From Blasia pusilla (lineage: Eukaryota): a stretch of DNA of 64,000 nucleotides. Under the pieces are notes generated by a model that was not told the DNA's origin, made no database searches, and saw only the letters and a list, made by a program, of their open reading frames with translations. Below are positions 1 to 42,600 of the stretch, piece after piece. How positions within the stretch are numbered: position 1 is the stretch's first letter; each line of letters starts with the position of its first letter. Position numbers and translations under genes: made by a program. Where the stretch lies: the NCBI GenBank assembly GCA_050084515.1, contig CM114271.1, forward strand, positions 20,956,001-21,020,000, written 5' to 3'.

Positions 1-737
1 TCACCAACGTAGGTAAGGCTGCCCTCAACTCCCCCACCCTATTGGTCATGGCCAACGTTGGTCTATCATCCCGTGTCACCACCTACGATCGACGCCCTGA
101 GCCCAAAATAGCATCCATTGTGAGATGTGGTGCTCTCTGGACTCCATCGTATGCTCGACTGAGTACCTCTGATGGTATCAGGTTTGTCCACCACAATCGT
201 GGATGATGAGCACGTGATCCAACTCTCGCCGCATCTAATAACACAGTAGGTCCCAACTAGGACCTCATCTGATACACATTCGTCATTACACGTGCACGAG
301 TGTCTCCCAACAATGACACGTTCTCCAAGATGTAGGTTGGAGAACATGTCTGACTCTCCTGCAAGTGTTGTACTACTCGTAGCATCTCCCAAAACATCCA
401 TGAACTCGGATCCTGCAATCCAAATCCTCAGTCAGCTGATGAATGACCCTGACATAGCCATCCAGCAATCACCAAATGAATGGTGCCAACTCTATCCAGA
501 TCCTGCGCCCCCACCAAAGAGATGTCGGCGGGTAGTGTATGCTGATATCCCCGTACTGCAGATACCGGAAACAACTCAGGGTACCTCTGGACCAATCGCG
601 CCACGTGACGTAATGATACTCGCCACGCGGTCTCATCTCTCTCCACATAAAGGTACTGATGCACCCTTATGCCCGCCTGCAATACTGCAGCCAATCCGGT
701 GCGAATCCCTCCGAAGAGATCTAACACCCTAACACCC
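1..737 (-). pseudogene. DNMT3-like methyltransferase domain of outer element (partial)
   Basis: VRVLDLFGGIRTGL, IHLVIAGWLCQGHS (PC changed to LC), YILENV (~334-317), LDAARVGSRAHHPRLWWTNL (~239-180). Confidence 0.88.
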
Positions 738-1032
738 TTCTCTGGGCACTGCCACACAACGGGTGTGGTGTCCAGTGGGGTCAACGTCTCCACTCCAAGA
801 GCCCGATCGCCACGTGACTCTCGCTGCTCCGGGATAAAAACATGACTCCACGCCTACCTCACGAGGTCGTCGGCACTCCTCTGTAGCTCTCGAGTCGTAC
901 CCCACAATGGTGAAGAGGTCTCGCCAACATGGGAAGAGACACCCGCCATGGCTTGTCTCTCCGTGGGACTATCCGCCAGGGACATCCTCCGCATGTGCGT
1001 TCCCCTCCAACAACTCTCCTGGTCCGCTAACA

Positions 1033-3308
1033 CTACCTGTGAAATCCGCCAACGTGGTCATTGACTCGCCTCGTGATCGACCACCTCGTCCCGCAAACTG
1101 CACGGGTAACTGACTCATCTAGCCGATAAGCAACGGTCTCCTCCCACAAGTCTAGGATGAATCCTAGAGGATATAACACTATACTCCCCACCAACACATC
1201 GTACGACTCAGCTGGTGTCGTAATCGCACGTGTGTGCACCATAGCACTATCCGTCGCATGCTCTGGCTGGACTCTCACAACTTTCTCCTGTCGAGTCATA
1301 TACTGCATGGGTGACACGCCCCCAATTGAGTTCCGTATCAGGAAGGGACAAGGCTCAATATCGGCCTTCCGTAACCCCAAGGCTAAACACGCCGCCTTCC
1401 CTAACATCAAGGGTTGCGCTCCCGAATCAAGTAGGACGCGCTGCAGGTGGTATATTGTCCTCGTTGGATTAACCAAGTGAAATACTCCAGCTCGGTTATC
1501 CAGTAACACTACTCCAAATGTCACCACTGCTCACTCTATGGCCGGTCAAGCTAGCATATCTACCAACTTGGCCGCCGCCGCATGCCATGACTATGTGGGG
1601 AACGTCCCGAGCACCGGCTCTGAGGGCAAGTCCACCACATCCTCAACTACCTCTGAACAAGAAGCAATCATCTCTCCACGCTCACACAACGTGGCGGCCA
1701 GCCGGAACACCTCAATTGGTCGCCAACTCTATGGCGGAAAATAGTGGAGTCTGACTCACTCTGGTGGCCACCTCCAACACTATGGTCGACACTGACTCCA
1801 CTCGAGCCGGCGTAGGAGTTGTCACTCCAACTCCTCGTGACGTCGACGTAGGTGCTTGAGCTGTAGGCACCGCTGGTTGTCGAGGCACCATCGATGGTGT
1901 GTGTAGTGCCTCGGACAATGTGAATGACTGTGGAACCCTGGCGTGCCGCCCATCCGTCCTCTCTGGTGGGTCAATCTCAACTCCACCTCTCGGTGCCTCT
2001 CGCAACACCCCGAGTCACCACTGCAGCTGCCTCAACCTCGGCTGCACTACACATAAACCCTGTACTGGTGAGATCCTCACCGGGGTCAGGGTAAGAGGTA
2101 GAAGTTGAAGTCACACTAGCTACTCGCAGCTCCGTGCCTTCCCTAAGCTGCATCATCGTCATGGCATCAATCCTCTGCTCCAACAGATCGATGCGTGAGA
2201 GAAGTGTCGGCTCTGGTGCTCCTGCTCCATCTCCTCTGGCTGGTGGTGGTCCTCTACCGCTACGTCTAGGAAGGACTCCCCGACCTCCTCCAGGATGACC
2301 GGCCCCAGGCCCTCGGCCTACCTTTGGACATGCCTCTCGGCGAAGGTCAAAACACCTATCCCTAGTGTGACCATATCTGTGGCAATAGTCACACTGGTGC
2401 TGTGGTGGGGCCATCCTCTATGGCTCCTTAGCAATCGGAGGCGCTCGTGGTCCTCTCCCATGCTGTGGATAGTCTCTCTGCCTATGGGCCCCTCCACACG
2501 TCCAACAAGACCACATCGATCCCTGTTGGGCAACATATGTAGGTACGGGTCGTTGCCTCATAGGCTCACGGTACCCGCCCTGCTCTCTGGGCACACCGGC
2601 CCGCTCTCGTGGTACTGGTGCTCGCTGTGGCACCTGTGGGGTCACCGTCGCTCGTGGACCTGTCGACTCTCGAGAAAATCCAATGGTCACTACCTGCTCC
2701 TCACTCATGTTGAGCTCAATACGCTCAGAAAACTCTAAGGCCAACTTCAATGTGGGCTTCACTGTGTGAATCAACACTGCATCTCGGACTCTCCTCCGTA
2801 GTTCTCGGTCCAGAACCCCGAACCAATACTGGACTGATTGTGTCTCAGTCACTCCATATGTAGCAATGATCAGCCTCCTCATGCGTGTGAATGCCTCTCT
2901 TAGACTCTCACCCGACCATCGCTCAAAATCCCGTAGACTCTTCAGCTTGTCGGTCCGTACGCCCTGGTAGCTCTTCCCCAACTGTCGGAAGAACTCCACA
3001 ATGGGGATGAAGCTGGGTGGCCCTCTACCACCAAAGGTCTTTGCCACATCGCCTATCTCACTGCCCTCCTCTCCATCTAGTCTCCGGGCTGATGGTGTGG
3101 GTCTCTCTCCTCTCACAATCCCATCATATGCCTCGCGACCACTAGTGGACACATACCCTAGAGTCCAATACATCCTCATGGCATCGATCTCTACCAAATA
3201 TAGTGATCAAAACTCCATGTAATCATCCATCGGAGAACCCTCCAAGTGCTGGAACAACCCCTTCCATGCCATGAAAGGGTTGAACCGTATCGGGGTCGAT
3301 ATCTCTTG
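1033..3308 (-). pseudogene. Gag (C-terminal part) and protease of outer element
   Basis: ORFs 2418-3197, 1977-2414 (CDYCHRYGHTRDRC) and 1033-1527 (VLLDSGAQ), with stops and frameshifts between them. Confidence 0.85.
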
Positions 3309-3446
3309 TGTCGTGCGCATACATATCGCTACACAACATACATCGCTGGTCACATCTACACCATACAACACCGATCTTCCCCACACACGGGTTGATCCAC
3401 ACATGTACAAAAATCAACTCATACATATACATGGAGATCACTCAAC
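3309..3446 (-). repeat. Terminal repeat A, outermost 3' copy (138 bp), ending in CA
   Basis: Direct repeat of 3928-4065. It joins B at 3446/3447 with no spacer and is followed by the TSD. Confidence 0.93.
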
Positions 3447-3925
3447 AAAAATAAAGAGTAGTAAAAACGGCACACCGGGCCTAAAACTCCACTCCTCAAT
3501 CTACATCGGCATATCGAGCCTCGTCCACCCTGTGCTATCAAGGAATCCGGACGCTAGCACCCTAGTCCTAGCTCACACACATACAAGGGAGGTGCTCCAA
3601 CGGCCCAACATGAGAAAGATGGCTTAGGAAAGCCATCTTCCTCTCTTATATAGGTTGGGAAGAGCCAAAAGGCTCAAACCCTAGAAATAGCCCTTCCCTT
3701 GATAACCTGCGCGCACAGGTTACCAGAGGCAGGTGACCTGGTCAACAAGTCACATGGCTATAAAAGACCTCAACATAAAAGTCGTCAGAAACAACGTTCC
3801 TGACGCAATGGACCTATCCTCAACCTCATCCGACACTGTGGGACAAAGTTACACTCAAGATAGTCCGCTGGCTCCTACGCCCTATCCACGATAGATCTCA
3901 GCCTATCGGTTACTCAGATGTGACA
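3447..3925 (-). repeat. Terminal repeat B, 3' copy of inner element (479 bp)
   Basis: Direct repeat of 12137-12613, sandwiched between two A repeats. Confidence 0.93.
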
Positions 3926-3927
3926 GT

Positions 3928-4065
3928 TGTCGTGCGCAAACATATCGCTACACAACATACATCGCTGGTCACATCTACACCACACAACACCGATCTTCCC
4001 CACACACGGGTCGATCCACACATGTACAAAAATCAACTCATACATATACATGGAGATCACTCAAC
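3928..4065 (-). repeat. Terminal repeat A, copy adjacent to the PPT (138 bp)
   Basis: + strand tgtcgtgcgc...gatcactcaac. Three substitutions relative to 3309-3446. Separated from B by a 2-bp spacer (3926-3927). Confidence 0.93.
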
Positions 4066-4075
4066 TGCCCCCCTA
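4066..4075 (-). other. Polypurine tract-like motif (TAGGGGGGCA)
   Basis: G-run about 70 nt after the pol stop codon, directly abutting repeat A. Confidence 0.7.
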
Positions 4076-4141
4076 GCTGGCAGTTGGATCCCCCTAACTC
4101 CAGATAGAAAATATCACATCTCTCTAACATGACCTACTACC

Positions 4142-4282
4142 CTATACACATCTCGGACACACCCATCGTCCCGTGGGAACCACATCAAGAGGGGGGGTCA
4201 GACATGACATATGCCACCCTCGAGAACAACCATCACATACCAACATGGTGGCTGCACCCCTCGCATATCCGCACAACATACA
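4142..4282 (-). CDS. PHD finger at the C-terminus of the integrase/pol
   Basis: CMLC-x11-CDGC-x4-HMSC-LTPPLDVVPTGRW-VCPRC, an intact C4HC3 pattern, followed by a stop codon. Confidence 0.92.
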   Translation of the reverse strand, partial: CMLCGYARGAATMLVCDGCSRGWHMSCLTPPLDVVPTGRWVCPRCV

Positions 4283-4499
4283 CCTCAAGCCTGGAGGTAC
4301 CACTGCCAAGCTTGGATCCACCGTCCCATCTACGTTCGGAAGATGACATGGCGCACAATTGCGCACATGATCCTTCCAAACCATACCATCTCGTCCCTCC
4401 AACATGAGGACTCCGGTCGGTAATACTTCGCGCACACGTAGGATAGTGCGCTCTGCAGTGACATCTAGCGTCGTGGGTGCCGCCTGCTGTAAATACACG

Positions 4500-5400
4500 T
4501 AATCTCCAGGATGAAACCTCCTAATCCCTGGAGGATAACCTCCTCCATGAATGGTCGCTACCTCAATGTATCTCTATCTCGGGCAATAGCTAAGTTCTCA
4601 AAGGCCATAGGCATAACTCTATGAAAAACTTCTGCCCTCTAAGAACATGCTTGCACCCACACATCTGGATCATCACGATCTAACACCTCCGCCATGTCAC
4701 GTCGAATCGCTGCATGTAACTCTGGCTCTCTCCCAAAGAGCAAAAAGTACGGTGAAAATGACGCCAAGGATGCTGCCGACTAAAGCGATAACCCATAGCC
4801 AACCATGGCAATCAGAGGTCCCACTCCCTCAATCGCCCCTGCTGCAAGCCATACTTGCGCAATCCTCTCTTCACCGTCTGTACCACTCTCTCCACCAATC
4901 CATCCGCCTCAGGATGATCCCTGGACGTGGTGCGGTGATCTATCGGCGCTGATCACACAAGGCCTGAAACTCTCCCTCGAACTCGGTACTGGTCGGTCAA
5001 CACCTCCGCGGTGCACCAAAGTGACTAAGCACACGATCTAGAAACGCATAAGCTTTTTCCTCGCCGCTTTGTCGGTAGTGCCACCAACTCTATCCACTTG
5101 GAGAAATGCTCCACCATGACCAACACGTACCTATGATGACGCCCTGTCAATGGCAAAGGTCCCGCAAAGTCTAAACTCCACCGATAACCTAAACCCATAA
5201 TCTCAAAAGGATGTAATTGCGGAGTGGGAGCATTGAAGGATGCTCGCACTCTGTCACATACCATACATCTGGCCACAAACTGTTGTACCCTAGTATGCAT
5301 GCCGCGCCACCAATACTGAACCTGGAGTAAGCTGTAAGTACGCTTTACTCCAAAATGTCCCAACTCCTCATCGGCATGTCGCACTACACGTGCTCGCTGG
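4500..5400 (-). pseudogene. DDE integrase (HHCC zinc-binding domain + rve core), frameshifted
   Basis: GHFGVKRTY...YWWRGM...CMVCDR, followed by RWSLDFAGPLP...YVLVMVEHFSKWIE. Confidence 0.9.
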
Positions 5401-5749
5401 GAAGGATGAGGTACCACTTGTATCCTACCATCTCCCCATACCCGCAAAATGTGAGTCCCCTCCCACCTGAACCTCTTGGCTCTCTGTAAGATCCAATCCC
5501 GCTCCCTAGCACTCATTGAACTCGCAATGACGCCAGTGCGCAAGAAGTCCACAACCTCCACGTCGTCATGGATATCACGACCACCTGTCGCCTCCTCACT
5601 AACCTCCGGATCCAAAGACTCATCATCCAACCCCACCACTCGAGTCATCACTGTGGCGACCGCCATAGTCAACCAACAAAGATAGGCGGATGCATGCCAA
5701 CCGGGCACCATCTCCTCATCACTCTCTCGTGCCATTGAGCTCGTGGACG

Positions 5750-6120
5750 TCTCTCGACTCGGACATGGGTTACGACTCGGCCCATCCGCATCCTGGTTCA
5801 GCCGACTGGGCCTATGAACCACCTCAAACTCATACTCTGTAGTAATAGAGCCCACCTGGTAAGCTTTCCATAAGCTTGTCGGACTCCATCAACCACTTCA
5901 ACGGTGATGATCGTGATAAGTGTGAAAGGGTTGCCAAATAAATAGCACCTAAAATATGCCACGGCCCCACCGCAGCCAAGCACTCTCCCTCAAGGAGTCA
6001 GATGCCGCCCTCTGCAATGTTGTTCGATCGCTCGCGTAAGCCACAACGAACTCCCTCTCCTCGTCATCCCTCCGAGTAAGCACCGCTCCTAGACCCAACA
6101 TGCTCCAACCGTATGTAATG
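5750..6120 (-). pseudogene. RNase H domain, frameshifted
   Basis: GLGAVLT...VVAYAS, AVAYFRCYLFGNPFTLIT, KLTRWALLLQ, EYEFEVVHRP...NQDADG.SR. Confidence 0.88.
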
Positions 6121-6379
6121 GAATGGGCGACCCCTAACCGGTCTCTCAAAATGGGTGAGGCGTCAACTTTGTCCTTGAGCTCTGAAATGCTCGCCTCGAT
6201 CATCTCCCCACAACCACACGATCAAGTTTTGTCAACAAGGTCAAAGAACGCACTAAAACCCTTGACATACAAGTCGATAGAAGTTCGCCATCAAGAAATG
6301 CTCGGACTGACTCACATCCAGAGGGCGTGGAATCTGCGCAGAATAGCCTCTACCTTGCCAAATCTGCTGAACGCCTAAC

Positions 6380-7050
6380 CCACTCGGGTATATGGTGTGT
6401 CCCAAGTACTCAATCTGCTCTTGAAAGAATCTGCACTTGCACGGATGTAACCGGTCCATGAAACGCAATCGCTGAAACACCTCCTCCAAGTGTCGCTCAT
6501 GCTCCTCAACCGTGGAATCAAGATAAGAATATCATCTATGTAACATCGCAAAATCTAAGCCAGCCAAAATCCTATCCATCACTGAAACTCCAGCGAGCGC
6601 GTTCTTCAACCCAAATGGTAAGAACCGCCATTGATACAAGCAATCTCTCCCGAACTGATCTATCCCCCGAGAATGTTGTCTTCTCCTGGCCTCCAACCTG
6701 ATAGGAGGCGATGATAGCCAGGACGGAGATCTAAATCTTGAAGATCTTTGCATGCCCTACGCATCAAAGATCTCCTCAGAGTAGGCATGGCATACCGATC
6801 TGACCTCGTCTGTCGGTTGATAGGACGGTAATCTCCACACATCCGCCTATCCGTCCAATTGCCATACATATCCTTCTTTGCCGGCATGACTGTGGCAGAT
6901 GCATACTCCCCATGTGACAACTCCACAAGTCCTGCCTCCAACAAGTCCTGACTCCTGCTCTGAATCAAGGCTCGCTCCATATCAGAATACCTGTAGGATC
7001 GACAAAAGATCGGCGTATCACTAGCCAACTCAATCCGTATCCCGGGACCC
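6380..7050 (-). pseudogene. Reverse transcriptase (Ty3/Gypsy type), frameshifted
   Basis: RMCGDYRPINRQT, DLRPGYH, LPFGLKNA, YIDDIL (~6543-6526), KCRFFQEQIEYLGH. Confidence 0.92.
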
Positions 7051-7500
7051 TTCAACGTACCCAAGTCTCTCATATCAAGGCAAAACAACCGACATGCCCT
7101 CTCGAGAAACCTATGAACTCACCGTCGCTCTCCTCCTATCAACTTGAGACCTATCACAGGCTCCCAAGTCTCCATCATGATCTCACTCGGAGAGGACGCA
7201 ACCTCCGGCTTTGGTTGCTATGTAGCAACCCTAGCCACCTCCGCAACAGCCACTCCACTATGACCTCCTACACCATGCTCCACATCCGAAAAATGAACAT
7301 GTGCTACTCTAGCCGCCTTCGCACTCTCTGCTCAAACGACGTCCCAAGAAGTCCATGGGTGCCTATCTCTCCTCATCTTGCCTGACCAATGCCTGTGACA
7401 GACCTCAGAGGCGTGGTCCAACTCGTGGACGTGGCGGCATGGATGACACTCGCATCCATCTCGCTTCGAGCCATACCTAGGTGACTATCCATGTGAGACA

Positions 7501-8408
7501 GTTGAGGTCCATCGCCCCTAACACTGTCTCCGTGATGCCTCAGTCATCCCTGGCACCGCCGTAGTACCGGTAGTGAACCCCATGGCGCGCTCACGCTCAT
7601 ATGCTGTAGGCTCCTCCAATGCGCCGGTCACCTCATCCCAAATCATGCGTGGCCCTCCATGACGAAAAGCATGGGATGCTGGGAAGCTCACCAACGTAGG
7701 TAAGGCTGCCCTCAACTCCCCCACCCTATTGGTCATGGCCAACGGTGGTCTATCATCGCGTGTCACCACTTGAGATCGACGCCCGAGTCCAAAATAGCAT
7801 CCACCGTGAGATGTGGTGCTCGACTCCATCATGCTTGACTCAGTACCTCGATGGTATCAGGTTTGTCCACCACGATCGTGGGACGATGGGCACGTGACCC
7901 AACTCGCTGCATCTAACAACACGGTCCCGGTCCCAACCAGGACTCACCGATGTACACTCGTCATCACATGTGCACAGTATCTCCCAACAACGGCACGTTC
8001 TCCAAAATGTAGGTTGGAGAACATATCCGACTCTCTGCAAGTGTCGTACTACTCGCAAACATCTCCCAAAACATCCACGACCTCGATCGTGCAATCCAAA
8101 TCCTCGGCCGGTTGATGAATGACCGACATGGCCATCCAAAGCAATCACCAAATGAATGGTGCCAACTCTATCAGATCGTGCGCCCCACCAAAGATATGTC
8201 GGCGGGTAGCGTATGCTGGTATCCCCGTACTGCAGATACCGACAACAACTCAGGATACCTCTGGACCAATCTCGCCACGTGATGTAATGATACTCGCCGC
8301 GCGGTCTCATCTCTCTCCACATAAAGGTACTGATGCACCCGTATGCCCCCCTGCAATACTGCAGCCAATCCGGTGCTAATCCCTCCAAAGAGATCTAACA
8401 CCCTAACA
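7501..8408 (-). pseudogene. C5 cytosine DNA methyltransferase domain (DNMT3-like) within pol of inner element, frameshifted
   Basis: Motifs occur in canonical order: I VRVLDLFGGISTG; II YVERD; IV GWPC (PC at 8131-8126); VI YILENV (~8011-7994); VIII-like DAA..G..AHRP..WWTNL; IX ERERAMGF; X RRQ.LG.AMD. Confidence 0.88.
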
Positions 8409-8829
8409 CCCTCCTCTAGGCACTGCCACACAACAGGTGTGGTATCTAGTGGGGTCATCGTCTCCACTCCAAGAGCCCGATCGCCATGTGACTCTCGCTG
8501 CTCTGGGATAAAAACATGACTCCACGCCTGCCTCACGAGGTCGTCGGCACTCCTCTGTAGCTCTCGAGTCGTACCCCATAATGGTGAAGAGGCATTGCTA
8601 ACATGGGAAGAGACACCCGCCATGGCCTGTCTCTCCGTGGGACTATCCGCTACTGGGACATCCTCCGCATGTGCGTTCCCCTCCAACAACTCTCCTGGCC
8701 AGCTAACACTACCTATGAAAGTCGCCAACGTGGTCATAGACTCGCCTCGTGATCGACCATCTCGTCCCGCTAACTGCACGGGTAACTGACTCATCCGACC
8801 GTCACCTGACCGCCATCCTGGCCGATAAG

Positions 8830-9150
8830 CAACGGTCTCCTCCCAGAAGTCAAGGATACATCCTAGGGGATATAACACTATACTCCCCACCAACACATCG
8901 TACGACTCAGCTGATGTCGTAATCGCACGTGAACGCACCATAGCACTATCCGTCGCATGCTTTGGCTGGACTCTCACAACAATCTCCTGTCGAGTCATAT
9001 ACTGAGTGGGTGATACGCCCCCAATCGAGGTCTGTATCGGAAGGGACAAGGCTCAATGTCGGCCTTCCGTAGCCCCAACGCTAAACACGCCGCCTTCCCT
9101 AACATCAAGGGTTGCGCTCCCGAATCAAGTAGGACGCGCTGCGGGTAGTA
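8830..9150 (-). pseudogene. Retropepsin-like aspartic protease domain of inner element
   Basis: RVLLDSGAQPLMLG (D-S-G active site) and downstream YDVLVG motif. One frameshift near 9045. Confidence 0.85.
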
Positions 9151-9949
9151 AACTATCCCCGTCGGACTAACCAAGCAAAATACTCCAGCTCGGTTATCAG
9201 TAACACTACTCCAAATGTCACCACTGCTCACTCTATGGCCGGTCGAGCTAGCATATCTACCAACTTGGCCGCCGCCGCATGCCATGACTCTGTGGGGAAC
9301 GTCCCGAGCACCGGCTCTGAGGGCAAGTCCACCACATCCTCAACTACCTCTGAACAAGAAGCAATCATCTCTCCACGCTCACACAACGTGGCGGCCAGCC
9401 GGAACACCTCAATTGGTCCAACTTCCAACGTCGCCAACTCTATGGCGGAAAATAGTGGAGTCTGACTCACTCTGGTGGCCACCTCCAACACTATGGTCGA
9501 CATTGACTCCACTCGAGCCGGCGTAGGAGTTGTCACTCCAACTCCTCGTGACGTCGACGTAGGTGCTTGAGCTGTAGGCACCGCTGGTTGTCGAGGCACC
9601 ATCGATGGTGTGTGTAGTGCCTCGGACAATGTGAATGACTGTGGAACCCTGGCGTGCCGCCCATCCGCCTCTCTCTGGTGGGTCAATCTCAACTCCACCT
9701 CTCGGTGCCTCTCGCAACACCCCGAGTCACCACTGCAGCTGCCTCAACCTCGGCTGCACTACACATAAACCCTGTACTGGTGAGATCCTCACCGGGGTCA
9801 GGGTAAGAGGTAGAAGTTGAAGTCACACTAGCTGCTCGCAGCTCCGTGCCTTCCCTAAGCTGCATCATCGTCATGGCAGCAATCCTCTGCTCCAACTGAT
9901 CGATGCGTGAGAGAAGAGCCGGCTCTGGTGCTCCTGCTCCATCTCCTCT

Positions 9950-11250
9950 GGCTGGTGGTGGTCCTCTACCACCACGTCTAGGAAGAACTCCCCGACCTCC
10001 TCCAAGACGACCGCCCCCAGGCCCTCGGCCTACCTCTGGACGTGCCCCTCGGCGAAGGTCAAAACATCTATCCCTAGTGTGACCATATCTGTGGCAATGG
10101 TCACACTGGTGTTGTGGTGGGGCCATCCTCTGTGGCTCTTGCGCAATCGGAGGCGCTGGTGGTCCTCTCCCATGCTGTGGATAGTCTCTCTGCCTATGGG
10201 CCCCTCCACACGTCCAACAAGACCACATCGGTCCGTGTTGGGCAACATATGTAGGTGCGGGTGGTTGCCTCATAGGCTCACGGTACCCGCCCTGGTCTCT
10301 AGGCACACTGGCCCGCTCCCGTGGTACTGGTGCTCGCTGTGGCACCGGTGGGGTCACCGCCGCTCGTGGACCCGTCGACTCTCGTGAAAATCCAGCGGTC
10401 ACTACCTGCTCCTCACTCATACGCTCAGACAACTCAAAGACCACCTTCAATGTGGGCTTCGCTGTGTGAATCAGCACCGCATCTCGGACTCTCCTCCGTA
10501 GTTCTCGGTCCGAACCAGACCAATCTTTGGACTAAGCTGCGCCTCGTCACTCCAACGTAGCAATGATCAGCCTCCTCATGCGTGTGAAGGCCTCTCTCGA
10601 CTCTCACCCGATCGTCGCTGAAAATCCTCAGAGACTCTTCAACTTGTCGGTGCGTACACCCTGGTAGCTCTTCCCCAACCGTCGGAAGAACTTCACCTTT
10701 GTGGGGTGTCAAGCAGGTGGACCTCTACCACCAGAGGTCTCGCCACATCGCTGTGTCCTTTGTCCTCCTCTCTATCTAGTCTCCGGGCTGATGGTGTGGG
10801 TCTCTCTCCTCTCACAATCCTAATCATATGCCTCGCGACCACTAGTGGACACATACCCGGAGCCCAAAACATCCTCCAGGCATCGATCTCTTTGAATATA
10901 GTGATCAAAACTCCATGTAGTCATCCATCGGAGGACCCTCCAAATCTTTGGAACAACCCCTTCCATGCCATGAAAGGGTTGAACCGTGTCGGGTTCAGAT
11001 ATCTCTGGAAGTCGCACCATGTGTCGAACTCCTGGATGAAATCATCTAAGTCGATGGTGCCCATCGCACCGAGAAACGACGCATGCCCCGATGGCCCATG
11101 TCGCCCATCTCCCGCCAAGTACTATGTCTCTCTCATTTCACGATCTCGTCACCAGACCGGTGTCTAGTGATGACGATCGATCCACGGATGGATGTCGAGG
11201 TAGCTCCTAATTGGTAACCCCTCGATATCTCACTCCACTCCGTGTCACAC
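9950..11250 (-). pseudogene. gag: Gag of inner element (frameshifted) with two zinc knuckles
   Basis: Fragments IDLDDFIQEFDTWCDFQ, CWTCGGAHRQRDY (degenerate knuckle) and CDHCHRYGHTRDRC (CCHC), spread over several frames. Boundaries approximate. Confidence 0.8.
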
Positions 11251-12123
11251 CACTACCACTGCTCGCACTGCCCCGTTCTTCCGAACCCTGGAAGAACGCC
11301 GTGATGACAAACCCTGTCTCACCCACTCAAGCACTCAGACTCACCGAAAGTCTCCCACACGCCTCACTAGCTCACCTATGCTAACATCAATCCCATGATG
11401 ACATACCCGCCTCACGACGCTCAACACTCGGGCTCACCATGAGCCTCCCAACCGACTCACCTAACCTAGCGACACACTCTCGGGTCATACACGCGACCCT
11501 ACTTCGGCAACCGTCGTATATCCACCAACATGCTACACATGAAAAGAATCTACACTCGTCACCATCTAGCACCAGCTACTACCCGATACCCAACACTCTC
11601 AATCACACACGACAAGTGCGAGAAAAGGGACTCGAATGGGTAACCTGATCACGCCCTCCAACCTCCTGCACCGTCAATATGCACTCCTCCACATGATATG
11701 ACAATCTCCGCCACATAACACTCCCCTCGACCAACACGCCGATCCTCCCACAATCAACAGATCACGGACAACCCGTCGGCATCATGCACACTGCCCCTCC
11801 ATCGTAAACTCTCGCAACGCCCTATGCGCGCCTCACAAACAACATGTCATGCAAACCCCTCTGTCCAACTTGTCGATCACTCAACACGTCGACATCCTCC
11901 CTGCCCTCACGTTGACCATGCGCACCGCGTTCGCCGGACCGACCTCGTCCGTCCTACCACGTTCGCTACGACTGTCCGACCGCCGTCGGTGCTACCACGT
12001 CGGAGAGGGGGAAAGAAATTGGACCGCGGCCCTATGCGGGCCCCTTGGGCCCTAAATGCGGGGGAACGCTTTAGCAACTCGCTTGCCTACCTGCAAACAA
12101 CGAATTCCCACCAGCCCCTTGAC

Positions 12124-12136
12124 ATCTTTCTCATGT
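12124..12136 (-). other. Putative self-priming primer-binding site (ACATGAGAAAGAT)
   Basis: Lies immediately inside repeat B, lacks the TGG of tRNA-primed PBSs, and is the exact reverse complement of 12298-12310. The same site is present at 13836-13848. Confidence 0.75.
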
Positions 12137-12613
12137 AAAAATAAAGAGTAGTAAAAACGGCACACCCGGCCTAAAACTCCACTCCTCAATCTACATCGGC
12201 ATATCGAGCCTCGTCCACCTTGTGCTATCAAGGAATCCGGACGCTAGCACCCTAGTCCTAGCTCACACACATACAAGGGAGGTGCTCCAACGGCCCAACA
12301 TGAGAAAGATGGCTTAGGAAAGCCATCTTCCTCTCTTATATAGGTTGGGAAGAGCCAAAAGGCTCAAACCCTAGAAATAGCCCTTCCTTGGTAACTGCGC
12401 AAGACAGGTTACCAAAGGCAGTGACCTGGTCAACAAGTCACCCGGCTGTAAAAGACCTCAACATGAAAGTCGTCAGAAACAACGTTCCTGATGCAATGGA
12501 CCTATCCTTAACCTCATCCGACACTGTGGGACAAAGTTACACTCAAGATAGTCCGTTGGCTCCTACGCCCTATCCACGATAGATCTCAGCCTATCGGTTA
12601 CTCAGATGTGACA
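12137..12613 (-). repeat. Terminal repeat B, 5' end of inner element (477 bp; contains TATA and predicted TSS)
   Basis: Near-identical to 3447-3925 (roughly 15-20 differences counted by eye) and similar to 13849-14327. Starts TGTCAC on the minus strand. Confidence 0.93.
12310..12342 (-). promoter_or_regulatory. LTR promoter: TATATAA box and predicted transcription start (C|A)
   Basis: Minus-strand TATATAA at 12342-12336, with a YR initiator 32 nt downstream (12310). Conserved in all three B copies. Confidence 0.65.
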
Positions 12614-13848
12614 CCTGGAAGTTGCACCATGTGTCAAACTCCTGGATAAAATCATCTAAGTTGATGGTGCCCACTGCACCCGAGAAACGACGCATGCCTT
12701 GATGGCCCATGTCGTCCATCTCTTGCCAAGTACTACTGTCTCTGTCTGCGATCTCGTCACCAGACCCAATGTCTAGTGATGACGATCTAGCCACGGATGG
12801 ATGTCGAGGTAGCTCCTCACTGGTAACCCCTCGGTATCTCACTCCACTCCGTGTCACACCACTACCACTACTAGCACTACCCCGCTCTTCCGAACCCTGG
12901 AAGAACGCCGTGATGACAAACCCTGTCTCACCCGCTCAAGCACTCAGACTCACGAAGAGTCTCCCACACTCCTCACTAGCTCACCTATGCTAATGTCAAT
13001 CCCGTGATGACACATCCGGCCTCACGCATACTCAACACTCGGGCTCACCACGAGCCTCCCAACTGACTCACCTAACCTAGCGACACTCTCAGTTCATACA
13101 TGCGACCCCTACGCGGCAACCGCCGTATATCCACCAACATGCTACATATGAACAGAATCTACACTCGTCACCATCGCTGCACCCACCTAGCACCAGCTAC
13201 TACCCGATACCCAACACTCTCAATCACACATGACAAGTGTGGGAAAAGGGACTCGAATGGGTAACCTGATCACAGCCTCCAACCTGCTGCTCCGTCAACA
13301 TGCATTCCCCCATGGGACACGGCAACCTCTACAACACAACACTCTCCTAGACCAACACGTCGATCCTCCCGTCAACAGATGCGGACAACCCGTCGGCATC
13401 ATACGCACTGACCCTCCATCTAAACTCTAAAAAACTTAGTACAAGCCCGCTCAACCACGTAGCGCTCATAACCATGTAAGTAGTTCCACCCGGATAGCCT
13501 GGTCACCACATCCTGAACCCTACCACATTGCCATCCAACCACGTTGATGGGGGGGGCGGCGGCGCACCGTCGCCGTCCGCCCATGCGACCTAAACGCCTG
13601 CTCTTTCTTGACAATCTCGCTGATAAACTCGCTGCCCCACTCTGTACTACACTGTGCCACTGTCCTCAATCCCTGTGCACCACCAAATTCTGAGAAAAAT
13701 GGACAGCGCTTCCGCCCACGGCCTTCTGACCAGAAAAATGAAAAACACCCACAACACACGCGTCTCCAAGGGCTCCCGACCAAGGCAACTTGCTTGCCTA
13801 CTTGCAAACAACGAATTCCCACCAGCCCCCTTGGCATCTTTCTCATGT

Positions 13849-14327
13849 AAAAATAAATAGTAGTAAAAATGGCACACCCGCCCTAAAACTCCACTCCTCA
13901 ATCTACATCGGCATATCGAGCTTCGTCCACCCTGTGCTATCAAGGAATCCGGACGCTAGCACCCTAGTCCTATCTCACACACATACAAGAGAGGTGCTCC
14001 AATGGCCCAACTTGAGAAAGATGGCTTAGGAAAGCCACCTTACTCTCTTATATAGGGTTGAGAAGAGCCAAAAGGCTCTTCCCTAAAAATAGCCCTCCCT
14101 TTGGTAACCTGCGCGCATAGGTTATCAGGGGCGGGTGATCTGGTCAACAAGTCACCCGGCTGTGAAAGACCTCAACATGAGAGTTGTGAGAAACGACGTT
14201 CGTGACACAATGGACCTATCCTCAACCTCATCCGACACCGTGGGACAAAGTTACACTCAAGATAGTCCGCTCGCTCCTACGCCCTATCCACGATAGATCT
14301 CGGCCTATCGGCTACTCAGATGTGACA
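13849..14327 (-). repeat. Terminal repeat B, 5' end of outer element (479 bp)
   Basis: Diverged direct repeat of 12137-12613 with the same boundaries. It is followed by the same PBS-like site (13836-13848) and likewise has no A segment. Confidence 0.9.
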
Positions 14328-14332
14328 GGCTT

Positions 14333-18451: not shown

Positions 18452-21400
18452 ATGGCAGATACTGCACAGCCCTTGGCTGGTCCGGATACAAGCTTTTACC
18501 TTTCACAAGCAGCTGCTGTAGCCATCGATGAGGAGCTCATGGGACCTTTGGGATTCAGCATTGATCAACTAATGGTACCCTCTCTCGCTTTCTGTTATTT
18601 TCTACTCTGTGTTGTATGAGTTCACTTACGAAACTTCATCCGAAAAATCTGGTTCGGCAAAGATCTATTGTTACTTAAATCTTTGTAGGTGAACCTTAGC
18701 AGCTGTTCCAGGATATGGTAAGTAGAGAGCATGATGGTTGAAGTGCCATCAAATTGTGGAAAGAAAGTTTCGATGTCTCTCCCTTCCAACTGCTCGTCCG
18801 TTGGTATAGTGGCTATTAATGCACTGGTTGAATATGTTGCAGGAACTGGCTGGACTGAGTGTTGCGTCAGCGATTGCAGAGGTAGCCAACTTGTCCACGA
18901 AGAGCAATTTTGTAGCAATCATCCAATGCCTGGCATTCCTTTTCTTCACTTGAGGTGATATTAATTGTACACATATTCTCCGTGTATTAAGCTAAGCTTC
19001 AAACGTGTCACCTTTCCCATGGCCTCCTTCTGAGGAAAAGCATTATGAGGCACAAGGAGTTTTGTGTTCTCTGGAAGGCAAGTGTGATTCCTTAATTTCA
19101 ATTGATTAGCCAACTGTTAGCCCAATGCAATGCAATGTATTTGATACAGCTCACAAATAGATGGTAAATGCAGGTGTATGGAGTTCAAGGACATTCTCGT
19201 GTTCTTGTCATATGTGGACCGGGAAATAATGGTGGTGATGGCCTAGTTGCCGCTCGTCATCTCCATCACTTTGGTTACAAGCTTTCAGTTTGCTATCCCA
19301 AGCGCACGGACAAGCCATTGTACCATGGGCTAGTAACCCAGGTTTGTTTCTCTGACATCCTTGTTGACAAACTAGTACATTACACTAGGCATCTAGGTCT
19401 TTTTGAAATTATGCTATTGTGTGACCAGGGTAATTCTGCTCAATTTTTTTTTGGATTTGATGTCCACTTAAAGTTGAATGGACTTTATTTACTTCTTTCC
19501 AATTCACAGCCTGAGCAGTGTATTGTTTGTCGATCTGCTTACAGTTGGAGAGTCTCTCTGTGCCATTTTTGTCAGTGGCGGACTTGCCTTCCCGAATTGC
19601 TGATGACTTTGATGTGGTGGTGGATGCTATGTTTGGGTTCTCATTCAAAGGTAAAGCCTCTTTGGACCATACTTGACCTGTGAAATACCCCAAGTTTGAT
19701 TCTCGAGTCCATCTTTGGCTCACAATTAGAATCTCTTGTTGTGCCGTGGAATGTTATAGACCTAAGTAAACACATTTGTTAATTTTACATGGAGGAGATT
19801 CATATCATCAGTTTCTGCAGGGAAACCTCGTGTTCCATTTGATACGCTTCTGCAGCAACTTGCAGTGCCGAGTGGTTCTACTGCGGAAGATATTGGATTA
19901 CCTATTGTGGTGTCTATAGACATTCCGTCTGGTTGGCATGTTGAAGAGGGTGATGTAGAGGGGACAGGATTTGCGCCTGATATGCTGGTATATGTCCGTT
20001 CACTTCTTTGCCCCTGATTTGTAACCAGCTTCTGCTGATCCTCATGTTTTCGCTTGCTTCTTATGAGGATCCAAGGTCTAAACATGGGTTATTTCAACTT
20101 TTCAGGTTTGCAATGCTGTAGTTGTCATTTGCCCCCTTATTCTGTCTTGTAAACGAGTATTGTCAAATTGGGAATTCTTATAATGGTAAAAGCAATGCGG
20201 CTTGTTATTTGGGTGTTTTGGTGTCAGGTTTGGGTTCTGAAGGGAGGAGACATACCTCTGACTTGCCAAATGTAGACTTGAATTGACATGGTATCTTATC
20301 ATTTAGTTTGAAGTTTGTAACTGTTATTGGCTTGGTGTTGGTATTTCTGAAAAACCTGTGCTGCTTGCACTCAAATTTTGCTTCCATCTGTCTTGTTGTA
20401 GGTATCACTTACTGCACCTAAGTTGGGTGTAAAAAAGTTCAAGGGAGTCCATCACTTTCTTGGGGGCAGATTCGTTCCCCCAGCTGTGCTTCAAAAGTAT
20501 GGGTTACGGCTACCAGCATATCCTGGTTCGTCAATGTGTGTACGAATTGGAAAACTTCCAGCTATAGATGTGGCAGCACTTCGTGAAAACTATGTGGGTT
20601 ATGAGCTGTCAGAGCAACAAGCAAACCCTGACCCTATAAAGCAGGTGCTTGGGCTCATGCCTCCTATTACTGCTCAATTGCCTGCTGGGATTAAATTTGC
20701 AAGGAATGAGATTGATTCCTGGATTTCATCTTGTAGTGGGAGGAAAGGCTGTTTAGGGTTTCTAGGCTTGGATTCTTCAAGAAAGAGATTTCTTTTAGTG
20801 AGGATCTTGGGATTTTCTTAGTGTTCATCTGAGAGCCTCTCTAAAGTTTTTATGTATTGGGGTATCTTCCTTGAACATAAGTTTCCCCTCCAAGAACACC
20901 ACCCACCAGGCGACCAGTATCAGTAGCAGGCATTGAACTCATGACAAGCACTGAGCTCTTTGTGCAATCATATCTTTTTTGGACCAGGGTGACAATATGA
21001 TGGGTTCACAGTAGTTTGGGTTGGGTCGTGTTGAAGGTTCACCATTATTCCAAGCTCACACCATGAGATGAATTATGCAGTTTAAAGAGTGGTTTGGAGA
21101 CGCGGTATCAGCTGGAGTCCATGAACCAAATGCCATGTGCCTAGCAACAGCAGATGACCATGGCAGACCGTAAGTGTCCCTCCTTCATGGTTTACATCAC
21201 AAGGTGATGTTTATAATTAAATTGTGCATTCTGACTTCTTTTGATGTTTTGTTCACCACTGACATATCTTCACTTAAAAGCCAGTTTCTCAATCTAAAAG
21301 CAGATCCCCTCATCATATCAATGCTTACAAGCATATTGGAGGAAATCCCATGCACGTCTTCAGCCAGGACCACGGCGTATTAAAGAATTTAATGCATCCA

Positions 21401-29475: not shown

Positions 29476-30072
29476 ATGGCCGCAGTGGTTTCTGCTTTTC
29501 CCAGCACGACTCCGACGCCCTTGCGCGAAAGCGTGCTGCAGCGGTCGCCCGCGTCGAGAAGGGTGAGGTGCGGAGCGCGGTGCGGTCCTGTGAGCGAAGA
29601 GGCTGGGAAGGTCGGGGAGGTTTTGGGTGGAAGCTTGTACGGGTTGTTAGGCGTGGAGCAGAACGTGAGCCTTACTGATATCAAGAGCGCTTACAGGCAG
29701 ATGGCGCGCCGCTACCATCCGGATGTGTGCGCGCCTTCCCGGCGAGAGGAGTGCACCCGATTGTTTTTGCAGGTGCAAGATGCGTATGAGATTTTGTCCG
29801 ATCCTGAGCAGAGGGCGGCGTATGACTATCATTTGATGCATCCGCTGAGCGCGAATGCTCTGGGATTCGGAAGGATGGTCAGGAACAAGAGGAGAGAAAG
29901 AGAGAATGCTTCGGATGCCTGGAGACTGCAGTGGCAGGCTCAGCTGTCGAGAATTGGAATGAGGGCACGAACGGAGCAGAACCAGACTGAAGGAGAGTCG
30001 TGGGGTGCGCGCATGCGCCGGCGCTCGTCGCAGGAGAGGCAGTCCGGATCATGCGATGCTGGGAAGCTTTGA
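29476..30072 (+). CDS. Small type-C J-domain (DnaJ) protein, probably plastid-targeted (DnaJ11/DJC-like)
   Basis: 198-aa intronless ORF with an S/R-rich N-terminus, the J domain SLYGLLGV...IKSAYRQMARRYHPD...FLQVQDAYEILSDPEQRAAYD, and a C-terminal WQAQL...SWGARMR segment. Confidence 0.93.
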   Translation: MAAVVSAFPSTTPTPLRESVLQRSPASRRVRCGARCGPVSEEAGKVGEVLGGSLYGLLGVEQNVSLTDIKSAYRQMARRYHPDVCAPSRREECTRLFLQVQDAYEILSDPEQRAAYDYHLMHPLSANALGFGRMVRNKRRERENASDAWRLQWQAQLSRIGMRARTEQNQTEGESWGARMRRRSSQERQSGSCDAGKL

Positions 30073-32511: not shown

Positions 32512-33979
32512 TATAAAATCATCTAAGATAGTAATTTTGGATGAAGGAAAAGTGTACGGGAGATCGAATGAAAGATTCAAAAAATTATAATGAAAATATT
32601 GATATAAAAAATTTTATATTATAAAATTATACTAACAGGGATAGGCAAGAGGATAATCCTAAGAGGGTGGATATGAAGTATTAAGGTCCCGTGCATAAGG
32701 AAATATGTTTTGACCAAATCCCGTTGTGAGTTTTTTACAATGGAATTAGATGGAAGACAAAAAAATGTGTTATGATCATAAGTAAGTCCGGAAATTATGA
32801 ACTATTAATAGGGTCAGTAGAAAGAGATTGTCCATGACAAATGCATCAAAAGGCAGGTACAAAATAATTCCCCAAATAATGGTTAAATTCCTACTTCTTA
32901 GATTAGAAATAATGGGTAATTTGAAAGTAAGTGATTGGGAAATTATGGAATTATGCTTATGTGTGTAGACTAGTCCAAGCTTTTCTATTAGTTAAAAATG
33001 CAAGATTTGGAACGCGAGATGGAAAATTCAAATACTAGTGTAAATACGAGATTATTTACTTTTGGATAAATATAACTCGAACTTTTTACATATCAGTGGA
33101 TTGTATTTATAAACTTTACAATTGTATTGAAATAGAAGTGATATAAGTTCTCCAAGTATAGAAAATCTCAAACTCAACTCACAATTGTAAAACGTGGAAT
33201 GTGTGTGATAACCTCCACCTTTATCTATCACACATCTAACCCATCTAGGTATATGGTAAGATCCAAATATTCAATATGATCTTCAAAGAATCTTTATTAG
33301 CTCCGATGCGACTTTAGTTCATGTAATTGTAACTTTCAAAAACATTTCTTTAAAGTGTGCTAATGCTTCTTGACCAAAGAATTGAAGATGATCATATATA
33401 TATATAGAGTATGGTAGATTCTACCATTATGACAAAATAGCATTTTTCACTTTGTCTAATATTCAGTTAAACATCTATCTATCTTGCTTGTCACTAAGTT
33501 TGGTATTGTGAAGAATTGTAAACTCCATGGTATAACAAGGGGGACAAAACTCAAACTAGAGAAGGAGATAAATTCTAAAGGAAATGAGGATACCACCTAA
33601 CCAAAGTGTTGTAGATGCTATGCACAAGGTTACATAAAGTCTTATATTGATTAGGTTTTATACAAATTCATGCATAATCTTTGCTTGCCACATTGAATCG
33701 AACTCGAGAGAGCAATTAGGTAGCTATATAGGACAATTAAGTCAATGATGATCTATATCAAAGAAATTTCGTCAATTTTGGTTAGACACTCAATATCTAA
33801 AATATCAATATCTATCTTTTTTGCTTGTATTGGAGGAGCAAGTAACGATAGTTCAACAGAGTTATGACTAAGACTACAAGCCAACAACTATATTTTCCTC
33901 TTAAGATAATGTTAGCGAAATGCATCTCTCTTCAAGAAACGTAATTTCTATCTCATGGTTTTTGGTAAAAGATCATCGG

Positions 33980-39600: not shown

Positions 39601-42600
39601 TGAGAAGACAATATCTGTTGTTGATATACCAATCTGTGGGTACCGGCACTTCGCCCTGAACGGTATGCACTGTTGATAATCCTGCAGACACGAACCAAAA
39701 GTCCAAATCCTTTTTTCTTGAGTACTATTGCAACTACCGACTCATATGGGTGGAAATGGAAGCTGACTTATACGGAGGACGATACTATTACGCTAGTTCA
39801 AAAGGTCTACACAAAGAGGTGATATGGTGTTGATTGGCGACTTTAGTGGAAAACAGAATCGGAGCAACCTTTGACCTGCTCGTAGAAATTACGAACGAAT
39901 TAGATCGTGTCCAAGTATCTCGCCATTTTCTTCCCACTCTCCACCAGAATATGAAAGGATATCTACATGAACAAAGAATCGGACCTACATAACAGAAATA
40001 GTTTCTTCACCAGGCAATAGCAATCTTTGTTTGAGCCCTGACTTACAGATAGTCTGGTTTAAGAGATGTTGATAATTCGGTCCTATGGGGTGTTTGTCAT
40101 GGTGTTCTTTCACCTGGGACAAAGATTTCTGGAAGAAACCAGCTAAAATATGAAATTCTACACAGCTAATGAATTCATGTTGGTATATCACTAGAAAAGC
40201 GCACACACCTTAATAAGACGACAATTGACAAATATATTTGCTGACATCTCATCGCAAGTGTCTTCTGTAATGGGCCTTTTCTTTGCAGGGCCTGGGCAAA
40301 AGTGAATCCAAATGCGTAGACTGCAACGCAAATAAAGTATGATGAATAGACAGTAATCAAAGCGGCTTGCCGATCTTAGTGTGGAATAGAAGTAAAGTGC
40401 TATCACTCATCTTTTTTGATGGCCATTATTTGAGGTTGAAATCTACTAACCAGAGGTGCGCAACTTATTATAGACAGTCTGCTACAATGAGACTCACCTG
40501 CTCTTAGCTCCAAGCGTAATAGAACTGAAACGCTTCAAAGACGTATTCGCAAGGGAGAAGTTGAGCTCTGTTGATTCATTGTGGTCCAAGCTGGAAGATA
40601 GAAGAAACTCCATGGCAACTGGAGCCTCGTTCACCACTGCAAATGAACGATTTCGATACCAGAAGTTGTAATAGACCTCTCCCATGTCTATGATCTTCAC
40701 CTCTGACCTGGCAAGTTGTAATGGAATCATCAAACAGAATACTCAAGTCAGCACCATCTTCCTTGCATGGCACATATGATGTTGGGCTTCTTACATCATG
40801 CATAGAAGTTTCAAGATGCTGAACGCACACAAAACCTGAACGAATCTCATCAAACCGACATTACACATGCTGCATCAGTAAAATTCATCGGCAGATCCAT
40901 CAATTGCTTACATACCTGTCACCTTGCACAAGGACGTGAAAAAATGTCAGAGATGGTGCCTCCGGGCGGGCATTGCGGGGAGCTACCACTTCCAGGCTGA
41001 GATGGACAGTTTTCAAATCAGCTGGATTCTCCAGGTTTTCCACCACCAAGTACGTAGAATACACACCTGCCAAGGAGAATGAATGAATGAATGAATATTA
41101 GCTCCAAAAGCTTAACAAACAGGACAAATTACACCACAAACACATGTTTAAGTCACAATTGCAGTAGTTGGACAGATGAGAAGCCTTGGTTCACCGGCTG
41201 GTTCCCTCCATAGTTACATGCAGACTTGTATTCTAATGTCATTTTTCTGTTGCATCAACTTTGTTTGGATTCCTTCGATGGAGTGATCACTAACTTCAGA
41301 GGCTACAAACCTGTGTATTTAACGAGGAGAAGCTCTTCAACATCGTTGAATCCATTATTATGATCATTTACTTCATCACATATCTTCTCATAATTGATCT
41401 ACTTCTCTGGTATTGGTCTTTGTAATATTTATCGATGTTGTATTAAATACACTGTTTGTAAATAACTCTGCTCATTCTCTACGGGTGCAATCAGATGTTA
41501 GAAGACTGGCAACCTCTCTTGGTGACTCGCACATACTCAGCCTCACAGAGAATCAACAGGAGCGATTAATGTATCTCACCCATTGCTTTCGTGGAAAACG
41601 AAAGTTGTACTATTTTCTGCTGTGCTGCCTCCACAAGTCCACTTGGACTGCTTATGCTTAGCCAGCTCGCATCTCCTCCAGTAATGGTGCACAACCGATA
41701 ATGTATTGGCCACGCTTTGTCTCCCACAAGAGTCAAGTCCCAATTCAGATGTCCTCCTGATGAAATGTTTTGTTGGCCAAGATTAAACTCGTAACAAAGG
41801 AGACTGCCCCCCACTGGAGTGCAACCCCGCAGTCCAAGAACAAGGGGGAACCCTTGCCCTGCTCGGGAAGCTTCCTTCACAACCTTTTCATCAAATGACA
41901 GTTCCCTGAACCGAACCTCGGATGATTTTTTACCACCTTCTAATGTAAGCTCCTGACTCTTTGCAGGAGGTCGGATTCTGACAACTATGCGCTCAGAACT
42001 CCTATCAGGCTTCTGACTTTCAACATCATGGACAACTAGTATGATAGCCAAAGGTTCAGGGTCAAGATCATCTCCTCCTGAAGCCCCTAGGACACTGTCA
42101 TACACATCTCTAGACCAAGGTCGTGATTTGACGAGAATTTCAACACTTCCATGAGGTGGAATTGAGCCCTCCAAAGGCTGTACAACAACATAATCAAAAG
42201 GAAGTTTTGCCTGAGGATCTTGATGGAGGCCACTTGGAAGTACAGAGAATTGCAGCGACTGAAATGCTCTAAAGTTCCTGATCACAACAATTTGTGACGA
42301 TCCTACTAAGTCATGTCTGCCCTCCCATCCTATAGTCAATTTGTTAGCGTGTTCTGTGTCGTCTGGGTTTCCTGTTCTAGGTCGGATCTCCTCGTCTGCC
42401 ATTCGCGCCTGCGATGAACTTCTAGTGTCACCAAAAAGCAAGAAAAAAGTAGAATTGAAAAAGCAGAGACTGAGCTAATCTCAATAATTTTTCCAGTGGT
42501 TGTAATTGCTGTTTCAGCTTCCAAAAAAGCAAGATGACTGCACAGAAGTTCCTAATTTGAAACACCGACGACACGGAACTAAACTTCGAGAATGACTGAA

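Follow-up and report, generated by a model that had tools for sequence, protein, structure and literature searches.

A probable streptophyte lineage of methyltransferase-bearing Ty3/gypsy retrotransposons, represented by two nested and decayed copies in a Blasia pusilla contig

The stretch of DNA analyzed here, referred to below as the window, spans 64,000 nucleotides of Blasia pusilla (GenBank assembly GCA_050084515.1, contig CM114271.1, positions 20,956,001 to 21,020,000 of the forward strand). Very probably it holds two decayed copies, one nested inside the other, of a single liverwort-like Ty3/gypsy retrotransposon family in which a DNMT3-like DNA methyltransferase (DNMT) domain lies between the protease and the reverse transcriptase (RT), in which the repeats follow the order A-coding region-B-A-B, and which belongs to the streptophyte DNMT3-gypsy lineage of the KnitGypsy-Dnmt3 kind.

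The polyprotein is of the Ty3/gypsy type and is read in the order gag, aspartic protease, DNMT, RT, RNase H, integrase and PHD finger. The hallmarks of this type are found in succession (CCHC knuckles in gag, D-S-G in the protease, YxDD in RT, RNase H and a DDE integrase; Table 1), the DNMT3-type domain lies in frame within the Pol of this gypsy set, and tblastn of Marchantia and other polyproteins covers both copies from gag to integrase. The position between protease and RT had been proposed in an earlier note on this DNA, as had the presence of the protease C-terminus and methyltransferase motif I in one open reading frame (ORF). Both proposals are borne out by the ORF at 8171-9052 (293 residues), which contains YDVLVGS (8882-8902) together with motif I, and the former also by the single proteins P0298, P0155, P0210 and P0213 of relatives. 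The protease of the window was assigned from its D-S-G motif and from its alignment to the protease region of those relatives; the aligned part of P0021 and P0155 is a weak match to Asp_protease_2, and the Closterium protein P0298 passes the cut-off of that family. For the PHD finger, the closest solved chains are those of CHD4, PHF12, KDM5 PHD1, PHF21A, DPF3, AIRE and UHRF1, most of which we take to read the histone H3 tail unmethylated at K4, and this suggests that the integrase may be tethered to such chromatin.

All the DNMT motifs of the inner and outer copies lie on the minus strand, and they follow the canonical order of C5 methyltransferases in both copies and in their relatives. The earlier note had listed motifs I, II, IV, VI, VIII, IX and X in unpermuted order in the inner copy, and motifs I-VIII again in an outer copy at 1-737. 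We recover the first set at 7495-8398 and the second at 179-724, the left edge of the window falling before motifs IX and X of the outer copy. Motif IV is flanked by frameshifts on both sides in the inner copy and reads LCQ in the outer copy, as opposed to PCQ in relatives. The same note had proposed a check against PF00145, the Pfam family of C5 cytosine DNA methyltransferases, and its outcome was divided. When the outer copy is read through (898-2) with X at its 4 stops, it scores 24.2 bits (E 2.7e-5), above the gathering cut-off of 22 bits, and the relatives score 23.5-51.3 bits; the DNMT region taken as its six separate ORF pieces, on the other hand, gives no match at E<=0.01, these being too short.

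DNMT3A/3B rank first by sequence, by profile and by fold alike, and together these searches support the prediction, already put forward in the earlier note, that the domain is of the DNMT3 type and not of the permuted DRM type. In a search of PDB sequences with the outer domain (E<=1), DNMT3A, 3B or 3C account for 29 of the 30 distinct sequences found (best E 3.4e-7), and the remaining one is a rubredoxin. A profile built from the domain of the window and 15 short relatives, for which 60 of the 63 PDB matches were listed, aligns colinearly with DNMT3A (1.8e-23; profile positions 27-278 against chain residues 348-573), DNMT3B (5.6e-22) and DNMT3C (8.8e-21). With the DRM chains the same profile reaches 3.8e-12 to 4.9e-9 and pairs positions 25-159 with the C-terminal chain residues 222-350, a partial match that is in the permuted register. 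The circularly permuted order of the DRM type, with motifs VI-X before I-IV, is absent from the window, which has the canonical order. M.HhaI is matched at 1.6e-8 and DNMT2 at 1.4e-4, and DNMT1 is absent from the best 60 of the 63 profile matches. An AlphaFold model of the domain (mean predicted local distance difference test score 78.2, predicted template modelling score 0.75) retrieves with Foldseek only DNMT3A/3B among the matches listed (best E 5.8e-10, template modelling score 0.55), with an identity of about 23% to human DNMT3A in the fold alignment. The domain thus shares the catalytic fold and the motif order of the cellular DNMT3A/3B, and it differs from these enzymes and from plant DNMT3 in having neither PWWP and ADD domains nor the plant DNMT3 N-terminal region, because it is flanked by protease and RT. 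DRM2 is permuted and matches it only in part.

Both copies in the window are pseudogenes. In the outer DNMT, each of the four stops is a C>T or G>A change relative to the inner copy, the Pro of the catalytic Pro-Cys has become Leu, and an Arg of motif VIII has become His. The two copies differ by 233 substitutions over 3266 aligned positions (155 transitions and 78 transversions, with 42 of the substitutions at CpG) and by 34 runs of insertions or deletions (indels), all but two of which (32/34) are not multiples of three. Almost half of these runs (16/34, none of them a multiple of three) fall within 403 bp (7785-8187) of the inner DNMT core (binomial p 5.6e-7), and of the 799 codons of the inner RT-integrase frame, 7166-4770, 15 are stops. 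At position 8138, a 2-base difference is common to part of the DNA contigs compared. CpG depletion does not distinguish the element from its surroundings, the observed/expected ratio being 0.72-0.82 within it and 0.59-0.68 in its flanks.

The left 14.3 kb of the window form a block rich in GC (52-56%) that borders on AT-rich host DNA (36-45% GC), and the long frames of this block are all on the minus strand. Comparison of the window with itself pairs 1-3306 with 7688-11006 (90.7% identity) and 12615-13428 with 11005-11812 (87% identity). The outer copy runs from 14328 to 12615 and resumes from 3306 to 1, with the inner copy interposed from 12613 to 3309; since the sequence of the outer copy is otherwise unbroken across 12613-3309, the inner copy was inserted into the outer one. 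Hence, a younger copy of 9.3 kb sits within the leader of an older one. Both copies start with TGTCAC and the inner copy ends with CGACA(C), flanked by CAGG and CAAG, a candidate 4-bp target duplication with one mismatch. The outer A1 (13849-14328) is 91.7% identical to 3447-3926 of the inner copy. A simple tandem array of long terminal repeats (LTRs) was considered for this layout and is ruled out, the sequence of the outer copy being continuous on both sides of the inner one. Between 9226-9825 and 1520-2110 there are 4 substitutions in about 585 bp, as against 6-15% divergence elsewhere between the copies, and this near-identity may be due to gene conversion.

The repeats of the inner copy are arranged as A-coding-B-A-B, that is, as split direct repeats and not as ordinary LTRs, and the outer copy likewise begins with A, its 3' end falling beyond the window. 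Two identical flanking LTRs with a tRNA primer site by the 5' repeat are thus not what the element presents: its repeats are split, no standard primer site lies beside A1 (a candidate, TGGTGGG, is found 23-24 nt downstream), and ARAGORN detects no tRNA genes in the window. At the junction of B1 and A2 (3926-3927) the sequence CGACA-AC-TGTCAC forms a palindrome and resembles two element ends joined. The layout of 3309-4078 is that of a two-repeat circle opened at this palindrome. The A-coding region-B-A-B arrangement is that of DIRS elements and, according to two figure legends of de Mendoza et al. (PMC5890265, Fig. 1e and 4c), KnitGypsy-Dnmt3 has DIRS-like repeats together with a gypsy domain set.

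Table 1. Features of the inner and outer retrotransposon copies in the window, with the evidence used to place them
Feature	Position	Strand	Evidence
Inner copy, whole element (9.3 kb)	3309..12613	-	self-comparison and junction sequences
Inner 5' repeat A1	12137..12613	-	96.5% identity over 480 bp to 3447-3925
Inner gag, two CCHC knuckles (10202-10219, 10079-10105)	9701..11109	-	tblastn of Marchantia P0203 residues 2-452; motifs
Inner aspartic protease region (LLDSGAQ 9112-9132; YDVLVGS 8882-8902)	8881..9686	-	tblastn of P0203 and P0021
Inner DNMT3-like domain (predicted), motifs I-X, disrupted by stops and 16 frameshifting indels	7495..8488	-	motifs, tblastn
Inner motif I, LDLFGGI	8378-8398	-	motif search
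Inner motif II, YVERDE	8306-8323	-	motif search
Inner motif IV, GWPC	8126-8137	-	motif search
Inner motif VI, ILENV	7994-8008	-	motif search
Inner motif VIII, SRAHRP	7880-7897	-	motif search
Inner motif IX, ERERAMGF	7575-7598	-	motif search
Inner motif X, AMDLNCL	7495-7515	-	motif search
Inner reverse transcriptase (YIDD 6531-6542)	6250..7166	-	weak Pfam RVT_1; tblastn of P0210 and P0021
Inner RNase H	5949..6221	-	Pfam RT_RNaseH_2, E 9.8e-5
Inner integrase (H2C2 zinc finger and DDE core)	4770..5888	-	Pfam Integrase_H2C2 1.1e-14, rve 0.0011; tblastn of P0021
Inner PHD finger, integrase C-terminus	4148..4282	-	Pfam PHD 5e-11
Purine-rich tract (polypurine-like), immediately upstream of B1	4066..4078	-	read from sequence
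Inner repeat B1	3928..4065	-	97.8% identity over 138 bp to 3309-3446
Inner repeat A2	3447..3925	-	self-comparison
Inner repeat B2, element 3' end	3309..3446	-	self-comparison
5' part of outer copy, with repeat A1 (13849-14328) and leader	12615..14328	-	self-comparison; TGTCAC at 14328 beside AT-rich host DNA
Outer copy gag, protease (DSG 1414-1434), DNMT to left edge of window	1..3306	-	90.7% identity to 7688-11006; tblastn of P0203
Outer DNMT3-like domain (predicted), motifs I-VIII, one frame with 4 stops, motif IV LCQ	2..898	-	read-through translation, PF00145, PDB search
Outer motif I	704-724	-	motif search
Outer motif IV, GWLCQG	446-463	-	motif search
Outer motif VI	317-331	-	motif search
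Outer motif VIII	179-217	-	motif search

Judged by sequence, the family is present with intact catalytic motifs in other bryophytes and in Closterium. An exhaustive HMMER search, counted as cluster representatives, yields 1345 of these at E<=1e-3, of which 467 reach E<=1e-10 and 67 reach E<=1e-30. Among the longer proteins, 24 match the domain of the window at E<=1e-5 with 31-65% identity: 14 'hypothetical proteins' of Marchantia polymorpha, two proteins of Calypogeia fissa, two of Sphagnum and six unnamed ones. PF00145 is present in 18 of the 24, and in the bryophyte proteins GWPCQG and ILENV are each kept in 17 of 19. The Marchantia proteins P0210 and P0213 carry the DNMT followed by RVT_1 and RNase H. 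Four further relatives with the same domain order come from the streptophyte (charophyte) alga Closterium, and one of them, P0298, joins CCHC, protease, DNMT and RVT_1 in a single protein. The family is already contained, unremarked, in the public annotations of Marchantia, Calypogeia and Sphagnum. The suggestion of the earlier note that the window comes from a land-plant genome agrees with the affinities of a single-exon DnaJ gene at 29476-30069 (44 relatives at E<=1e-10, led by Marchantia polymorpha, M. paleacea and Riccia fluitans at 55%, 60% and 64% identity and followed by mosses), and in the tree described below the DNMT falls within the liverwort set. Taken by themselves, this one gene and the position of the DNMT point most likely to a liverwort host that belongs to none of Marchantia and Riccia.

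Comparison of 252 DNMT-bearing proteins reveals more than one placement of the domain. RT lies upstream of the DNMT in 119 of them (the named ones being from Scenedesmus and Haematococcus), the DNMT lies directly before the integrase in 26 and upstream of RT in 10, and the remaining 97 are domain-only fragments. A maximum-likelihood tree was computed from 77 of 203 eligible rows (the named rows, all the DNMT-before-RT rows and 60 others drawn at random, minus one long row), and it splits them into 21 and 56 rows with a support of 100/99; the bootstrap was not fully settled, and a quick tree agrees with the split. The smaller side holds the window, Marchantia, Calypogeia, Closterium and all 7 DNMT-before-RT rows, and none of the 49 rows in which the DNMT follows RT, all of which are found on the larger side. 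The tree and the domain orders show two fixed placements, before RT in streptophytes and after RNase H in a sister clade from chlorophytes. In an alignment of 203 DNMT domains, the catalytic Cys is conserved throughout the 137 chlorophyte-type rows, as is Glu-Asn in motif VI, and the residue before that Cys is Glu (ECQ) in 91 of the 137 and Pro in 33; Glu is also found in 5 of 7 other rows with the DNMT before RT. Motif VI is mostly ENT in this alignment, and the bryophyte proteins have PCQ and ENV. Relatives were also named from Cymbomonas tetramitiformis, their domain order not being established. The gypsy-type clade with the order RT, RNase H, DNMT, integrase and PHD (P0010, P0032, P0131 and others) is large, its unnamed remainder is mostly metagenomic, and no description of it was found in the literature searched. 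One 1974-residue polyprotein of the family, P0259, carries the NCBI name 'MAG: reverse transcriptase domain-containing protein [Minisyncoccia bacterium]', and the bacterial label is probably due to a mis-binned algal contig.

Related copies are transcribed. Two RNA-seq runs of the same species label (X20 and X21) were mapped to the inner copy at a likeness of at least 88%, and they place on it 1241 of about 10.1 million and 1367 of about 12.0 million records, respectively. The first mate is overwhelmingly on the plus strand in both runs; for stranded libraries of the usual kind this corresponds to minus-strand RNA, sense to the element. Over bins 4240-7349, from integrase to RT, the depth is 9-29 in X20 and 5-30 in X21. 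In one DNA run 139,342 contig pieces match the element, a figure that is not a copy number and that points to an abundant family.

Among previously known elements, the nearest in build is KnitGypsy-Dnmt3 of Klebsormidium nitens, as presented in the portions of de Mendoza et al. 2018 considered here (PMC5890265): both have an unpermuted DNMT3-type domain in the Pol ORF of an intronless, gypsy-type element, DIRS-like A-coding-B-A-B repeats with a gypsy domain set, and a streptophyte host. The host is in our case a land plant, a liverwort, and the copies of the window are dead. No Klebsormidium-named proteins occur among the family relatives found. The gypsy-type elements of chlorophytes ('pol' KAF8056149.1 of Scenedesmus sp. 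PABB004 and QJQ45_005505 of Haematococcus lacustris) share with it the integrase, a PHD finger at the C-terminus and a DNMT that is homologous at 33-43% identity; they differ in carrying the DNMT after RNase H, in forming a sister clade in the DNMT tree and, for the most part, in reading ECQ instead of PCQ and ENT instead of ENV. SymbioDIRS-Dnmt3 of Symbiodinium, in the same portions of that paper, also combines a DNMT3-type domain in a retroelement Pol with the A-coding-B-A-B layout, but it is a tyrosine-recombinase DIRS element of dinoflagellates, whereas the integrase of the liverwort element is of the DDE type and bears an H2C2 finger. A histone reader is likewise fused to the end of the integrase in chromoviruses and other LTR elements, at the C-terminus (a chromodomain, or PHD fingers in Chlamydomonas elements, in what was available of PMC8557442); here a PHD finger takes this place, and a methyltransferase is present in addition. 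In the passages considered, Sarre et al. 2025 refer to DNMT-bearing gypsy elements as ones already described from streptophytes, and a 2026 preprint refers to 'streptophytes (Gypsy-DNMT3)'. A search of open-licence PMC papers and bioRxiv, supplements excluded, retrieved no paper that describes a DNMT-bearing retrotransposon from a land plant; gypsy elements with a DNMT were discussed there only by de Mendoza et al., by Sarre et al. and in the 2026 preprint, and land plants are mentioned by none of them. The type of element is already known, and its occurrence in liverworts and mosses, as well as the split in domain order between streptophytes and chlorophytes, appear to be unreported.

Several observations weigh against the assignment of the copies to a DNMT3-gypsy family of liverworts and against an active enzyme in it. 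Neither copy in the window is able to make the methyltransferase, and the window protease has no Pfam match even at E<=5. For placement in the DNMT3 clade the evidence consists of the PDB profile scores and the fold, the tree being one of retroelement domains only; kinship with KnitGypsy-Dnmt3 rests on shared architecture and not on a tree; and the liverwort affinity of the host genes rests on one gene, DnaJ, at 55-64% identity. The RNA reads are mostly 90-95% alike to the inner copy, with only 10 (X20) and 5 (X21) being at least 99% alike, and they fit only in part in 928 of 1241 and 1067 of 1367 cases, respectively. Coverage is thinnest over the DNMT (bin depths of 1.8-10.6), and some of the reads may therefore stem from relatives that lack a DNMT. 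Finally, the sole published assay of a gypsy-borne DNMT3, that of the KnitGypsy-Dnmt3 domain in yeast, showed no methylation, a result that section 10 of PMC5890265 describes as inconclusive.

What intact copies might do with such a domain can be stated only tentatively. In the reading we prefer, which we hold to be a genuine possibility but not an even one, the methyltransferase would be translated together with protease, RT and integrase and would methylate CG sites either of the newly made cDNA of the element or of the DNA at the insertion site, while the PHD finger would tether the integrase to chromatin in which histone H3 is unmethylated at K4. Self-methylation of cDNA was proposed by de Mendoza et al., whose discussion, in the part considered here, leaves the role open (PMC5890265). 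That same openness leaves room for a rather unlikely alternative, in which the enzyme would act not on the cDNA of the element but on host chromatin at the site of insertion or close to it, or on other elements, and would serve, with the PHD finger, to damp the copy number of the element or to hide it in silent chromatin. The presence on the integrase of a PHD finger whose closest solved counterparts read unmodified H3K4 or the H3 tail would suit this alternative, but in the polyprotein the DNMT adjoins RT and not the integrase.

It is less probable still, and in our view distinctly improbable, that the domain has been kept for something other than DNA methylation, be it RNA methylation after the manner of DNMT2 or a structural or DNA-binding role in the particle. 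The failure of the KnitGypsy-Dnmt3 and SymbioLINE-Dnmt domains to methylate DNA in yeast, as given in the sections of PMC5890265 considered, would agree with such a role, and so would the Glu that takes the place of Pro before the catalytic Cys in the 91 chlorophyte-type and five other rows mentioned above. Yet not one of the 137 chlorophyte-type rows has lost the Cys or the Glu-Asn of motif VI, the bryophyte proteins have the canonical PCQ and ENV, the profile strongly favors DNMT3A over DNMT2 (1.8e-23 against 1.4e-4), and the SymbioDIRS-Dnmt3 domains do methylate CG in yeast according to those sections. A further explanation, that retrotransposons happened to hit a DNMT3 gene or pseudogene of the host, or that a single copy made a one-off capture, has in its favor the similarity to DNMT3 and nothing further, and it is refuted to the point of being negligible: the domain occupies the same protease-RT position in both copies, CCHC, protease, DNMT and RT are united in single predicted proteins of Marchantia, of Closterium and from metagenomes, introns are absent, and hundreds of relatives reside within polyproteins.

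Beyond the GC-rich block, the window contains features of other kinds. Fragments of other retroelements on the minus strand are marked by tblastn matches at 33099-33395 to the RT part of the Marchantia protein P0210 (37% identity, E 1e-10) and at 60344-60463 to the gag part of P0203 (45%, E 8e-5). A large multi-exon host gene occupies 41566-56348 on the minus strand and includes one open exon of 1266 codons (44122-47922), and on the plus strand the exons at 19168-20821 encode sequence that is presumably of the YjeF_N / NAD(P)HX-epimerase type.

The window itself contributes two dead copies only. What they bear upon is the question of what a retrotransposon gains from a DNA methyltransferase, and this question can now be moved to organisms with genetics and methylome data, since the annotations of Marchantia polymorpha, Calypogeia and Sphagnum include relatives whose catalytic motifs are intact. 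The two placements of the DNMT bear, in turn, on the question of a single or a double capture of the domain. More generally, and as a conjecture that we hold to be less likely than not, these elements might represent an old green-plant DNMT3-gypsy lineage that came onto land with the streptophytes and is still abundant and transcribed in liverworts, where its DNMT3-like writer and its PHD finger reading the H3 tail would make up a self-contained epigenetic kit that methylates cDNA or the insertion site and thereby shapes bryophyte methylomes. If this proves true, such a DNMT3-gypsy kit would be testable in a genetic model, because the family is present in Marchantia polymorpha.

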